DNA of 64,000 nucleotides, from IMG/VR virus record IMGVR_UViG_3300009945_000011, positions 18,847 to 82,846 of that record. One strand, 5' to 3'. Of the stretch, positions 9,708 through 56,150 are shown one piece after another. The notes under the pieces were generated by a model. It was given only the letters and a program-made list of their open reading frames with translations, did no database searches and had not been told where the DNA came from. The position numbers and the translations under genes were made by a program. The DNA comes from a virus. Its lineage: Duplodnaviria > Caudoviricetes. Position 1 is the first letter of the stretch. Every line of letters begins with the position of its first letter.

Positions 9708-9733
9708 CCTTCACATATTGCCTGCACAGGCAT

Positions 9734-10489
9734 CTAGATATACGGCATGACAAAGTACTTATCCCCACGAATGGATACAACCCTGAAGCCATGCAGAAGA
9801 AGCAACCACGCCGTTTGATAAAACTGCCTTACTAGGTGCTGAGTTCCAAGTACATCACGAAGTACCGTCTCGCAAATAATATGATTTGCTGTGTATTCGG
9901 CCATCGCTTCCAAAACGCGGCCACTGAACTCGCTCTTGTGCGCATTAACTCTTGCATCGACTTCCCTGCTGATTTCTAAGCACGCCCCCGAGACCAAAGC
10001 TAATTCAATCTCTTTTCCAAGGAACGCTCTCATGTGCACCCTGCCACCACAGCAGTCCTCATCCTCCTGTATGATGGCGTATTCATCATCGAACCCAATG
10101 ATTACGACATCAGAGCGATCGGGAAACTGGCGCGTACGAGCCATGAAGAGGCGCGGTACAAGCTCATTGACCAGGCTCTTCGCATCGGTCCACCACTGCG
10201 GTTCTTTTACTTTCCGCAACAACCTGGCCTTTTTCGGGAACAGAACACGCAAGGTCTCGGTTCCGCTATAGAAATCAGCGTAGGCTGGGAACGTAGCCTC
10301 AGCCTCATACACATCAGATGAGAAATCTATAAACCTATCCCAAACACCCCTCCATGAGGTGAGCCACACTTCATGCTCATGCGGCACAAACCAGAGCTTG
10401 CTTGCTTCAACCTGTCCTGGCCGAGGAACGGTGCTCACAAGCGGAACAACGGCAAGCAGTGGTTCGTCATGCGCCATGATCGTTGACAC
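9734..10489 (-). CDS. Hypothetical protein
   Basis: 251-aa ORF in operon order. Confidence 0.65.
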   Translation of the reverse strand: MSTIMAHDEPLLAVVPLVSTVPRPGQVEASKLWFVPHEHEVWLTSWRGVWDRFIDFSSDVYEAEATFPAYADFYSGTETLRVLFPKKARLLRKVKEPQWWTDAKSLVNELVPRLFMARTRQFPDRSDVVIIGFDDEYAIIQEDEDCCGGRVHMRAFLGKEIELALVSGACLEISREVDARVNAHKSEFSGRVLEAMAEYTANHIICETVLRDVLGTQHLVRQFYQTAWLLLLHGFRVVSIRGDKYFVMPYI

Positions 10490-10515
10490 ACGCGCACTCC
10501 TCGGATAGCCGCTCT

Positions 10516-54100: not shown

Positions 54101-56102
54101 GCAGGAATTTAGCCGTATCCCCGATGCCGTGAAGTACACGTTATCACAGATGGACTACACCTTCGTGATAACGAACCAAAGTATCGAGGGGAATGTTATT
54201 GCTACTGCTGACGCGGTTAATAAAGCGTTTAAAGAGAAGTATGGCAAGCCGATCCTCTCGACGGTAAAGTATGTTACTGATGAATTTAATAATACCTGGG
54301 TCGAGTTCAAGAACAAGGCGGGCGAGACGGTACGTGTTTCTCCGCTAGAGTATGAAGAATACTTAAACTCGCTGCGCACATTGCAAGCACATTGGAAAGA
54401 GGCTCGGGAAGAATACGAGCGATACCGCCAGACATTTGAAAATCCCTTCTTACCACAACGAGAACCGAAGGGGGGACGCCCAGGTCGCGGAGATTCCCAG
54501 GGTAGGCGCCTAAATCCCAGACATGGCAAAACGCCAATGTCCTTTGAGGAGTGGTACTGGCGTCACTATGGCGGAGAAGAGCCACCAGAAGGAGAGAAAC
54601 CGCCAGCGCTGTTCCCGCCACCTGACGTCGCGTATAAAGAAGGCCAGCGAGCCATTGAAGCGTGGACCAAAGGCTTTGAGTCTGGAGCACAATCTGGCGA
54701 ATCAATCGTGCACATGAGCAAGGTCATTGATCTGGAGCGCGTTCGCCAGGTTGGTCGCAATGCCGCACAAGTCTTCATTGAAGAATTCAACAGTTCTCTT
54801 ATGTCCGCGACTGGGCGGAGCCAGAGCAGTAGTGGTCAGATTTACTCTGATGCCACGGCCAGTCCATTTGACGAGACCTTCCGCGCATATGCCCAGCTTG
54901 CCGTCAAAGCATTCAGTGAGACACTGCGGAGCGAGTTTGCCAACCTCAACTTGGCAAGCCTTCTTTCTGGCGGGGACAACAATGGTCAGGATGCTTACGC
55001 TGGAGATGCTGGTGGTCCCTTTGATCTCTCGTTCTCCGCGTATGCTGCTTTAGCTTTCACAGCTTTCAAGGAAACACTTCAGAACGAGTTCTCGAACAAC
55101 CTTTCGAAGCTGCTGAGCACTGAGACAAGCCCGTTTGACTCCGCATTTAAAACCTATGGTGAAAGCGCGGCATCGGTCTTCATGCAAGCGTTCAATGATG
55201 CGATCAAAAACTTCGTTCCGTCCGCGTCCCTAGGGAATGCGGGAGGATCAGTAACCGCAGCAGAGAGCAACCTGATCGGACCGATGCCAGCAGCACCAGC
55301 AGTACCACAGATGCCCGCGTTGTCTTATCAGGTGAAGTTAACGCTGGATGATGCCGCGTTTTATGAGAAGCTAAATATAGCGTATCTTAACTTGCTTGTG
55401 TTTGATGCAAAAACGTATACGACGAAGTTGGATGTCAATGATGAAGACTTCCTTAACAAGTATAACCCGATCATCGTGGCACTCAACAATGACTTTACTC
55501 CAGCGTGGACAACGACGCTGAAGGCAGAGAATAACGAGGCGCTGGTAGCCATTGGTGATGTTCTGGCGAAACTCGGCGAAGTTGCCGCAACATGGACTGC
55601 TACGGTTTCCGTTAGTGGTGCTGACGAAGCTGCACGTTCGGTAGGAAACCTCATTGGGTTGCTCAATATTCTTGACGCAATGAATGTGACGGCAAATGTG
55701 AACGTTGTCCACACGACAACGTATGCCCAGGTTGGCACTCCTGGTGGTGGGGCAGATGGGAATCCCTACACACCAATGGCAAGTGGTGGCCTGGTGACCC
55801 AGTCTGGGTTCTTCCTCGTTGGAGAACGTGGACCAGAGCTTGTCTCGCTCCCGCGTGGTGCCCGCGTTTACTCGCACCAGGAAACAGTGAGCATGATGTC
55901 GTCCCTGCGCTGGACGACCAGTGCCAGTGCCGCTGGTTCCTCTGCTCCACCAGTTAATGTCGTCTTCAATGGAGACATTCACGTCCAGAAGGAACAAGAC
56001 ATTGATACGCTTGTCAGGAAGATTGATGAGGCTCTTGGCAAGCGGCAACGGAGTGCTCGCAGGGTTGCTCCTTCCGATTATTCGATTCCGTCTCTTAGCT
56101 AA
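48123..56102 (+). CDS. Tape measure protein (2659 aa)
   Basis: Coiled-coil N-terminus, TMP core (FSAQEIAQG, ESFKYIGP), hydrophobic helices, C-terminal MASGG...VGERGPE motif. Confidence 0.92.
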   Translation: MPQPIRIEITSDAKTQGFDEAIQRIEQLKRALHGITVPKELRDLAAAIRAINNAGKGTQSRATQAMAEEAEKAARSLGTVAVAMQRAKRAGTDMVSAMMNTRIQMRQLDQTQKQLKESARYLEGAQDRLIAIQKRGAASVRELVEAQHQLFRAQQNNEKASRNLQALDQQIQRSLDRRKRAAEELKRLEEEIATREQGGEKVPSQLRGTASLLRSQIEEFDRTVAPQISELQKTIARMRMTSGGLRGRIAQINFYKTGVQEYLADLRRQETEQRRVQRQLATLAAQEAAMQRRINRRIAREFEQQQREAARAAQQAQKVALKSVQQQAEQLIGVVNRLRHAFDSLFSTINRLAAVLRNTLSSALRSASTMIGNLTHSAASRFASMRHALDSTGRSALIFGRNVSQGMNQARTALERTAAGWSLILGGQMIGRTGRSLLSGVGIDLGQYMEYERVATRAAISGSADLDLINTLVFGLQRGQLFGTDITAFGRKTGPIKQFSAQEIAQGAYYLVSALGLNLQGPTPAATAENLLAAANMLMPMLQVAAFTLTSPETMIKGALNIGMEFGYDPRQIAQSQLFGKIAAAVGYLANISTMEVPDIVESFKYIGPMFHGLQGGAPGAGLADAMAAIFFASEVGLRGGNVGRGLAQFAATMRDPSGPALEAFSKAFGQEASPDAWKQFWFDARGNLKGGFYGFISTLLAAGDRSAVDTLITEIFTQNASRALIGITSGLGGEKEYLEFLKELTSGNYTKAIELWERANRQTSNTVFASWQNLKNAWFELSNSIITSIRGPLIRAFDGFAKAIRSISDILKTNPVITRFITDIVFLVGVLLTAIGALLTFAGTVLIIQRAILLAHGSLQIFSSILLALPHILGAALPVLLALGSAAVLLYTAWHENFLGIRDTVNVFVSDFDNALTTKILPVIAQVITHVKRFGTAFAEFIRGILLGIGPTNNLGAALIQVFGLELGGRLYARLLQAQRALYTLRQSALDFFRSLRSGIPAVGNITSVIQEFITQVVLGFSNLSSVPYIGRGLTKLADAIRQALTVVINTLFVSFKSIPFDTIFANLDRAFSSRSLENFVRLFESFASGAVYGFVTAVRGAGEAIAFLTRAIADTAQGFGRWRVQLLGITVTLNNVAQLIGVAFGALLATRLLMSLRIMQSLTIAGLKLSLIIAQVGVTVAGAAAQFVLFAARIAVVTATLLAQAAAFAAGVASRLAFFAAEQLIQFAAQTTTASLMAQSAAHGAATAATVAQTAATAGLAATLSSLALSLASVLVPLLAIPLAIGAFVALGLVAVGMTKGWSAALEGLIAFLQGLWDVLSVVLQAVTVVVSGFLSFISVIASALGVTNEFYLLGVALGLALTALGLVITGVLVAAFAALTASILSAVAAFVAMNLPTIALVGAILAIGQAIAMLLGFDNVFEMLASGFKYVADAAVWAANKIEAAVRVIKNALSTSQKEALEFRIMSLRESRDRMVQEPPSELNENWRREAEMKYPGSAQQRRAYIEQERNKYMRQQYETWVASQGGYQRVLVSGPEGPRYVLMDPLEKAEYDLKQYELRQQEASKAQKSTSLATSDQGFPKRQSAIQMVEDLLRKWGIDISLYKAILSGKRPDQLLGLDQVKAISSAYSVDQFAFLPPEMQDFITKAQKYNEWKKFVDRVGIRQATLFYEANDIPIPQPPSYEDLMGAVDAYGEMANEIDRAAQELAEFNQQADEALSKAPDIVKAFSTAFDQGKPGFYSDIAGQYLPGFMSIPTALAKYGDTIIKNAENRYQELYGSTELPRWFNLYEGIMDTVGYRMMAKDNTVVPTDYYNVYGKNLHRLLANSPGFQNWAQEIGLSVDDLLKDVPKFVHAEELVPLASSEIAKTISLIPVEMYQKLDHLGVAEGWSEFGIEWLDLAQYAISQASAGHDWNLANYIAESWGVSVQEAEQFLLQHGINPNIITQALFPNLDLAIASQGGKVNVFDEAWYEWFKAKTKDGVNHIIEVSQQEFSRIPDAVKYTLSQMDYTFVITNQSIEGNVIATADAVNKAFKEKYGKPILSTVKYVTDEFNNTWVEFKNKAGETVRVSPLEYEEYLNSLRTLQAHWKEAREEYERYRQTFENPFLPQREPKGGRPGRGDSQGRRLNPRHGKTPMSFEEWYWRHYGGEEPPEGEKPPALFPPPDVAYKEGQRAIEAWTKGFESGAQSGESIVHMSKVIDLERVRQVGRNAAQVFIEEFNSSLMSATGRSQSSSGQIYSDATASPFDETFRAYAQLAVKAFSETLRSEFANLNLASLLSGGDNNGQDAYAGDAGGPFDLSFSAYAALAFTAFKETLQNEFSNNLSKLLSTETSPFDSAFKTYGESAASVFMQAFNDAIKNFVPSASLGNAGGSVTAAESNLIGPMPAAPAVPQMPALSYQVKLTLDDAAFYEKLNIAYLNLLVFDAKTYTTKLDVNDEDFLNKYNPIIVALNNDFTPAWTTTLKAENNEALVAIGDVLAKLGEVAATWTATVSVSGADEAARSVGNLIGLLNILDAMNVTANVNVVHTTTYAQVGTPGGGADGNPYTPMASGGLVTQSGFFLVGERGPELVSLPRGARVYSHQETVSMMSSLRWTTSASAAGSSAPPVNVVFNGDIHVQKEQDIDTLVRKIDEALGKRQRSARRVAPSDYSIPSLS

Positions 56103-56150
56103 GTAGCTGGTGCCGTGCCTGCACAGGCACGGCACCCATTGGTGTGACGT

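Follow-up and report, generated by a model that had tools for sequence, protein, structure and literature searches.

The DNA analysed here is a window of 64,000 nucleotides, bases 18847–82846 of the 82,846-bp IMG/VR record IMGVR_UViG_3300009945_000011 (G000), from a virus of the Caudoviricetes. A 14-bp palindrome, TGCCTG-NN-CAGGCA, is dispersed over this DNA, and we found it to be a real, conserved signal: its 12-bp core, GCCTG-YR-CAGGC (Y, pyrimidine; R, purine), is strongly enriched, keeps a fixed spacing between its arms and a symmetric YR centre, recurs in a diverged relative, and lies mainly between genes in G000. The core may well be a dyad DNA site for a dimeric, sequence-specific protein, which would read it on duplex DNA and thereby affect transcription. 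Positions given below are those of the window, and the prefix G000: marks coordinates of the record. Gene calls in G000 are our own rough picks of open reading frames (ORFs).

Copies, geometry and conservation of the dyad

The exact 14-mer occurs six times in the window (9719, 21901, 29172, 30247, 33199, and 56116) and not once in 100 dinucleotide shuffles of it. A seventh exact copy was found at G000:10166, 8.7 kb before the window, and copies with one mismatch were found at 15982 and 51730. A preliminary description of the window, made from its letters alone, had listed seven copies and judged them to exceed chance expectation. All seven coordinates are correct, the copy at 15982 ends in T on the + strand as described, and the copies at G000:10166 and 51730 come in addition. 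The core is present eight times in G000 against 0.09–0.14 expected from Markov models of orders 1–4; it is the most over-represented word of at least 10 bases in G000, and its sub-words head the list of repeated words of 10–12 bases. One-mismatch variants with a YR centre were also in moderate excess (8 against 2.6 and 16 against 5.2 expected). A chance origin of the motif was rejected on the basis of the shuffles, the Markov expectations, and the variant excess.

Two genomes carry the motif, G000 and a relative in IMG/VR (G001), which was obtained by a terminase search. G001 is 115 kb long, its terminase is 59% identical to that of G000, and its ends overlap by ~190 nt; it is therefore a closed genome. 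It holds 11 perfect copies of the core against 0.2–0.8 expected, although, the structural and replication cores aside, no homologue in G000 could be detected for most of its genes. The strong enrichment of the core in so diverged a relative argues for function, and the preliminary description, which had named a lack of conservation in related phages as evidence against its proposal, is not refuted on this point. In contrast, no core copy is present in G002, a complete and more distant relative of 127.9 kb that has terminal repeats and a terminase with 45% identity. IMG/VR terminase scans returned only G001 above 45% identity, and a search of IMG/VR for the exact 14-mer gave scattered single matches and G001 only. 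The metagenome scan yielded two short contigs and the genome scan only distant Bathyarchaeia proviruses; a DNA-polymerase profile was too generic for finding relatives, and the protein collection contained ~100 closer terminase relatives at the protein level, among them a group with 54–67% identity on contigs some 15–90 kb long.

Across the 19 perfect core copies of the two phages (8 in G000 and 11 in G001), the arms are invariant and the centre is always YR (7 CG, 12 TG/CA, and 0 TA). Among the arm spacings compared, from 0 to 30, an excess is seen for 2 bp alone in both motif-bearing phages; the rest, like the everted arrangement, do not rise above background. On the transcribed strand, the 19 centres read 6 UG, 6 CA, and 7 CG. 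With UG and CA equally frequent, there is therefore no strand preference, and the strand readings bear out the earlier remark that the centre varies between TG, CA, and CG, with both GUGC and GCAC transcribed. In G000, the transcribed strand has UG at 9719 and 33199 and CA at 21901, 30247, and 56116. The flanks of the eight G000 copies have nothing in common beyond the 14 bp. No Rfam family matched the motif copies at gathering thresholds, and none of the publications searched contains the motif sequence.

Six of the eight core copies in G000 lie between genes, in gaps of 17–48 nt, where they start 0–6 nt after a stop codon or end 5–21 nt before a start codon; a strong Shine-Dalgarno sequence lies 0–5 nt 3′ of three of these intergenic copies. 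Six of the eight fall in the part of the genome (21%) that lies either between genes or no more than 35 nt from an ORF end (P ~0.002, on rough ORF calls). The exact copy at 9719..9732, with centre CA on the + strand and UG on the transcribed − strand, occupies a 26-nt gap between the − strand genes 9734–10489 and 8820–9707 (DnaB-type helicase), 1 nt 3′ of a TAG and 11 nt 5′ of an ATG. The copy at 15982..15995 has its mismatch in the outer base (last base T on the + strand) and reads AGCCTGCGCAGGCA on the − strand; its first two bases complete the TAG of 15994–16368, and 5 nt separate its end from the ATG of 15263–15976. The exact copy at 21901..21914 is preceded at 2 nt by a TAG and followed at 4 nt by AAGGAGG, with 18 nt from its end to the ATG at 21882 on the − strand.

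Three further intergenic copies lie at the centre of longer perfect palindromes, whose lengths had been given correctly. The one of 24 bp (29167..29190) is located in the leader of a − strand gene starting with GTG at 29153. Its motif copy (29172) stands 18 nt before this GTG with TAGGAGGG in between, and the palindrome is predicted to form an 11-bp RNA hairpin. That of 18 bp (33197..33214) adjoins AAGGAG of the + strand gene 33226–34254 and lies 92 nt after the subtilase stop codon, its copy (33199) being 13 nt before the ATG. The 28-bp palindrome (56109..56136) lies between the genes for a tape-measure-like protein (2659 aa) and a Dit-like protein (1572 aa). It starts 6 nt 3′ of a TAA, ends 14 nt 5′ of an ATG, and has no T-run on its 3′ side. 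At this same junction, both G001 and G002 have a canonical intrinsic terminator. The Shine-Dalgarno sequences adjoining the copies at 21901, 29172, and 33199 agree with the closeness reported earlier.

The remaining copies are placed differently. The copy at 30247 is not at a gene junction; it forms the tip of a 34-nt interrupted palindrome (30237..30270) in a non-coding stretch of ~430 nt, ~120 bp upstream of an early-type promoter-like site, TTGACA-17-TACGCT. On the − strand, the interruption consists of one U.G and one G/G, and the fold has a z-score of −4.1. The copy at G000:10166 lies in the last 35 nt of the + strand gene G000:9736–10200, where it encodes the final V-P-A-Q-A, and within a larger stem with outer 8-bp arms. 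The one-mismatch variant at 51730..51743, TGCTTGCGCAGGCA, is inside the 2659-aa ORF and may be a chance or a decayed copy; its change retains a U.G pair on the coding strand.

Copy positions are mostly non-orthologous between the two phages. In G001, 3 of the 11 copies are intergenic, and two others lie in the final 30 nt of a gene, 25–30 nt before the next start, where the genes abut without a gap. Six are deep in ORFs, that of the conserved primase among them; of the in-ORF copies, one encodes a lipobox, A-C-A-G, and two fall in repeats of a single protein segment. The earlier claim of a genome-wide element sitting at gene junctions thus holds for G000 and fails in part for G001. Each motif-bearing phage has one copy (30247 in G000 and 89389 in G001) in a long non-coding region near the divergence of the transcription arms, and no gene start adjoins either of them. 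A near-copy of the core in G000, GCCTGTGCTGGC at 32000–32011, encodes A-C-A-G, a lipobox-like site, in the signal peptide of the subtilase; the same coding coincidence applies to the G001 copy at 22561, in another lipoprotein-like gene.

Nine early-gene leaders of G001 (78.9–86.3 kb, − strand) share one module, composed in order of GTAGGCACCTA, a covarying G+C-rich hairpin, CTGATGCCTG(C), a second hairpin or CA-CAGGCA, (G)TAGGCAC, a Shine-Dalgarno sequence, and ATG. RNAfold pairs GUAGGCACC with GGUGCCUGC around the first hairpin. The 14-mer can stand in place of the second hairpin, and the leader units resemble cassettes in which the UGCCUG element has more than one possible pairing. A sigma-54 reading of the GTAGGCACC box in G001 was rejected, its spacing being off by one.

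A site on DNA or a stem in RNA

As a DNA site, the core would be bound by a phage-encoded protein or by a host factor common to both phages. The eight sites in G000 would be spread mainly over short gaps between co-directional genes of both arms, with one in the non-coding control region. Their occupancy would have a local effect, either by hindering, as a roadblock or insulator, the passage of transcription between gene blocks or, where a site is near a promoter, as an operator. The six G001 copies deep in ORFs favour a DNA site, because such a site tolerates coding placement better than an RNA signal at junctions does. The strict dyad with its single arm spacing, the invariant arms, a YR centre whichever strand is transcribed, the copy that each phage has in its long non-coding region, and the likeness to the Cluster O repeats favour the same reading. 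Minimal copies fold poorly as RNA; the hairpin is not part of the minimum-energy folds at 9719 and 21901 (z-scores +1.7 and 0.0, respectively). Additionally, the excess of one-mismatch variants with a YR centre makes a graded series, as expected of an operator family.

The protein sets of the three phages were compared. Common to G000 and G001 and absent from G002 are an Xer-like tyrosine recombinase (37472–38365, − strand, just upstream of the terminase gene), a large serine recombinase (G000:5249–6967, − strand, before the window), and an RNA ligase, and further proteins confined to G000 and G001 have 264 aa (11718–12512), 390 aa (22261–23433), and 154 aa. The recombinases match the phyletic pattern of the motif, but the conserved part of the site is too short for them. 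The gene of the 154-aa protein, P0124 (G000:9736–10200, + strand, before the window), has in both phages a promoter of its own (TTGACA-17-TATGCT in G000) that drives its transcription counter to the adjacent genes. The P0124 family has ~400 representatives, none of them annotated, and IMG/VR profile scans with the family returned only G001. The structural model (predicted local distance difference test score 85) has two repeated beta-beta-alpha-beta-beta units and aligns best with MraZ (1n0e_A; Z 6.0, root-mean-square deviation 2.8 over 82 residues), followed by B3 DNA-binding domains (Z 3–4) and PhS018 (2.7), all of which are AbrB-related pseudo-barrels; Foldseek gave nothing clear with P0124. 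P0124 is a weak and rather unlikely candidate binder, and it is the sole candidate that combines a DNA-binding-like fold with the matching phyletic pattern. A 22-bp perfect palindrome, CCCCCGCTACTAGTAGCGGGGG, lies 3′ of its gene at G000:10216–10237 and is likely a two-way terminator.

The three regulators suggested in the preliminary description fit poorly, less well than P0124. The product of 30841–31245 has no detectable homologue in the motif-bearing G001, that of 855–1307 is equally present in the motif-less G002 and weakly resembles sigma region 4, and that of 13620–14177 gave only a marginal syntenic match (E 0.04).

Several observations weigh against a site read on duplex DNA. Four to five of the eight G000 copies have extra complementary flanks of unrelated sequence (24, 28, and 18 bp, the interrupted 34 nt, and the outer 8-bp arms), which such a site does not need; the probability of at least two extensions of at least 6 bp among 19 sites is ~1e-5. 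Terminator hairpins of G001 and G002 occupy the place of the 28-bp palindrome of G000. In the G001 leaders, UGCCUG is predicted to pair with the upstream GUAGGCACC box around the covarying hairpin, and one leader has two compensatory changes in its second hairpin, a motif position included. As for the binder, the structural Z of P0124 is below the level that the notes of the tool call secure, searches of Pfam, PHROG, NCBIfam, and PDB sequence profiles found no match for it, and its promoter is without a motif copy. A Coprococcus phage with a distant P0124 homologue beside an integrase has no dispersed palindrome, and the family was therefore rejected as a general marker of such palindromes. 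Finally, no XRE-type helix-turn-helix protein, ParB, or other classical repressor was found in G000 or G001.

It is possible, if somewhat doubtful, that the element acts instead as an RNA stem, UGCCUG/CAGGCA, between a stop codon and the next ribosome-binding site (RBS). Recognised by a sequence-specific RNA-binding protein or endoribonuclease, it would punctuate polycistronic transcripts via processing, protection of 3′ or 5′ ends, or coupling or insulation of translation, like the T7 RNase III sites. Such a stem would suit the extended arms of differing sequence at 29167–29190, 56109–56136, 33197–33214, 30237–30270, and G000:10166, and the 28-bp palindrome standing in place of terminator hairpins. 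The interruption at 30247 gives a U.G only on the transcribed strand, just as the 51730 variant keeps one on the coding strand. Closeness to a stop or start codon (six of eight copies, and the two G001 copies ending gapless genes) and the G001 leaders, where the half-site pairs with GUAGGCACC and CCUGCGG/CCGCAGG is changed in a compensatory manner to CUUGCAG/CUGCAAG, point the same way. However, the arms are invariant, with no covariation in 19 perfect copies from two phages at ~50% protein identity, and the putative tetraloop (GUGC, GCAC, or GCGC) shows the variation expected of a strand-symmetric DNA step. With only 5 bp, the stem is marginal, and the folds predicted at 9719 and 21901 lack it; the G001 copies are all without extension, and six are deep in ORFs; and the copies at 30247 and G001 89389 adjoin no gene start. 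In the 14-mer register, the G001 variant at 78884 sets C against A on the transcribed strand as a mismatch, Rfam contains no match, and the isolated GTAGGCACC box shows no enrichment in G000, which also counts against an RNA signal.

The preliminary description had proposed either an operator or roadblock network or a translation or processing signal, and both readings survive; they are not mutually exclusive. Because the extended G000 copies are those with the most non-coding room, perfect palindromes could have grown outward there, the longer arms being tolerated or having become useful secondarily. We regard as quite unlikely a scheme that joins these elements into a symmetric counterpart of the stoperators, in which a dimer of the MraZ/AbrB-like P0124, made from its own promoter counter to the lytic genes, would bind 8–11 boundary dyads and silence or time both arms and sites with room would have grown into hairpins read on both DNA and RNA.

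Recombination offers a very unlikely explanation. The copies would then be crossover or binding sites of an Xer-like or serine recombinase, or repeats that drive modular gene exchange, as proposed for the Cluster O repeats and the T4-type promoter-early stem-loop (PeSL) cassettes. Both recombinases occur in G000 and G001 and not in G002, as does the motif; serine recombinases cross over within a 2-bp centre, an 11-6-11 division of the 28-bp palindrome would resemble a dif site, and several copies adjoin genes without a homologue in the relative. Deletions between repeats were seen by the Cluster O authors (PMC4351075). Against this, the conserved 4–6 bp per arm are too little for sites of Xer or serine recombinases, the outer arms of the long palindromes differ, and eight dispersed sites in both orientations would lead to the deletion or inversion of essential genes. 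Moreover, no copy adjoins either recombinase gene, and neither attC-like R/L boxes nor a Y1/RAYT transposase was found. Least credible of all is a neutral by-product, a short functionless sequence spread by the duplication of leader cassettes or by template switching. The early regions of both phages do contain repeated leader modules, template switching can lengthen perfect palindromes with unconstrained flanks, and it is the copies with the most non-coding room that are extended. Yet the flanks share nothing beyond 14 bp, so the copies did not arise as duplicated cassettes; the 12-mer recurs unchanged in a phage whose other non-coding DNA and most of whose genes are unrecognisable; and the fixed spacing and YR-only centre argue for constraint.

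Comparison with known dispersed elements

The closest counterpart in form is the repeat of the Cluster O mycobacteriophages (Corndog and relatives), and in possible action the stoperators are closest. The Cluster O repeat is a 17-bp sequence, TGTTCGG-NNN-CCGAACA, present in 31–34 copies per 70 kb, with invariant 7-bp arms and a variable centre, and its authors infer sites for dimeric proteins (PMC4351075). The dyad of G000 is likewise conserved, orientation-free, and genome-wide with a short variable centre, and its copies are similarly mixed across short gaps, gene starts, and gene interiors, kept in related phages and absent elsewhere. It differs in sequence and geometry (5/6-2-5/6 here and 7-3-7 there), in copy number (8–11 per 83–115 kb), in its extended hairpin arms, which are not reported for Cluster O, and in the unrelated lineage and host. 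The two are thus the same kind of element and not the same family.

Cluster A stoperators are 13-bp asymmetric sites that follow the direction of transcription and are bound by a two-domain repressor acting as a monomer (PMC9283540); they resemble the G000 dyad in being one short site in many copies, located in short intergenic gaps of both arms (PMC9283540 and PMC6550527). Stoperators with a bound L5 gp71-type repressor demonstrably block transcription elongation. In contrast, the G000 site is symmetric and orientation-free, with 8 copies instead of some 30, and the stoperator analogy drawn in the preliminary description is only a loose one. HTH_3 gave no match in G000 or G001, and no gp71-profile search was made. 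Lysogeny of G000 is only suggested, by the two recombinase genes.

Other dispersed elements differ more. In Cluster K phages, start-associated sequences (SAS) are reportedly conserved short sequences just 5′ of many gene starts, and their extended forms (ESAS) are said to be imperfect inverted repeats. SAS are asymmetric and include the RBS, whereas the G000 motif is symmetric, lies 5′ of the Shine-Dalgarno sequence, and is also intragenic in G001. The T7 RNase III sites (R0.3 to R18.5) are about ten related stem-loops at early, middle, and late junctions just 5′ of RBSs; they are irregular hairpins of at least 20 bp with an internal loop. These sites extend over about two helical turns, unlike the G000 stems, which have 5–6 bp at five copies and 11–15 bp at three. 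The conserved inverted repeats (CIRs) of the Streptomyces phage phiC31 and the KorB operators of RK2 comprise a dozen or more dispersed palindromic operators, some far from promoters, under one regulator. Their binders are known, whereas a ParB_N search was negative here, with no match in G000, G001, or G002.

Several other assignments were rejected. A promoter is incompatible with flanks that have no common −35/−10 or other upstream element, and the motif is too near start codons. An intrinsic terminator was discarded since no copy has a T-run 3′ and none appeared in the terminator scan, and a lambda-type nut site since the flanks share nothing and the loop varies between UG, CA, and CG. In the case of attC or dif sites, only TGCC/GGCA (4 bp) and the centre are common, and the longer palindromes (24, 28, and 34 nt) have outer arms that bear no relation to one another. 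Repetitive extragenic palindromes (REP) or their mosaic elements (BIME) with a REP-associated tyrosine transposase (RAYT) were rejected because Y1_Tnp is absent from G000, G001, and G002 and the conserved unit is 12–14 bp. A restriction or modification site was likewise rejected; the 14-mer is not known to contain one consistent type II site, and the methylase and DpdA4-type genes of G000 have no counterpart in G001. A mimic of CRISPR repeats, to whose type I-F stems the motif bears a partial likeness, was dropped on account of the unconserved flanks. For the likeness to LacI-type operators (TG-N4-CG-N4-CA), there was no LacI-like gene among the proteins scanned.

Dispersed, perfectly conserved dyad repeats have been described in few phage groups, and a function is known for stoperators only. 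The Cluster O repeats have been unexplained since 2015, and the dyad of G000 and G001 is an independent case from an unrelated lineage. Its copies are so few that each is mutable, two relatives with the motif and one without provide a natural contrast, and minimal and hairpin-extended copies side by side make the question of DNA or RNA directly testable. If a binder were found, it would constitute a new regulator–operator pair with genome-wide control of phage gene blocks.

Gene content and other sequence features

G000 encodes a family-A DNA polymerase, a primase, a DnaB-type helicase, a thioredoxin, a deoxynucleoside monophosphate kinase, ThyX, a class II ribonucleotide reductase, an RNA ligase, a DNA methylase, and a DUF6610/DpdA4-type protein. 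Its structural genes include those for the terminase large subunit, portal, head protease, and 2659-aa tape-measure-like protein, followed by the Dit-like protein with fibronectin and carbohydrate-binding modules; a subtilase gene is also present. From this gene content, G000 is therefore a large siphophage. A leftward gene arm runs from ~31245 and a rightward arm from 31941. DNA searches found no cultured relative, the best terminase match among cultured phages is 30% identical, and no tRNAs were found. The two recombinase genes suggest a temperate or plasmid-prophage lifestyle. The ends of the contig fall in neighbouring tail genes by synteny with G001, and the record is probably nearly complete, despite the displayed completeness estimate of 68%.

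Two small proteins encoded on the − strand, at 855–1307 and 13620–14177, have C-terminal parts that resemble sigma-70 region 4 and may be phage sigma-like factors. The former, which is conserved in G000, G001, and G002, gave one weak NCBIfam match (E 0.0025), and the latter was recognised by eye. In the ~430-nt non-coding stretch at 30130–30560, A+T-rich AATAAT-type runs alternate with G+C-rich blocks. The stretch holds a long inverted repeat (about 30150–30235), is flanked by a hairpin with an A/T-rich tail and by the early promoter-like site, and could be an origin or control region. An 18-bp perfect palindrome, GCGCCTATATATAGGCGC at 31265–31282, lies just 5′ of the RBS of the first leftward gene (30841–31245) and downstream of a promoter-like site, TTGACT-17-TATACT (31349–31321).

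The relatives contain repeats of their own. G001 has 72 copies of an asymmetric 9-mer, GAGGCYCAG/CTGRGCCTC, against one in G000 and none in G002, which is far above chance; they occur in both orientations and are mostly intragenic. In the early region of G002 (76.9–86.3 kb), seven copies of GTAGC-N4-GCTAC are clustered, several directly 5′ of a TTGACA −35 hexamer, and this repeat looks like a promoter-attached operator of a different kind.

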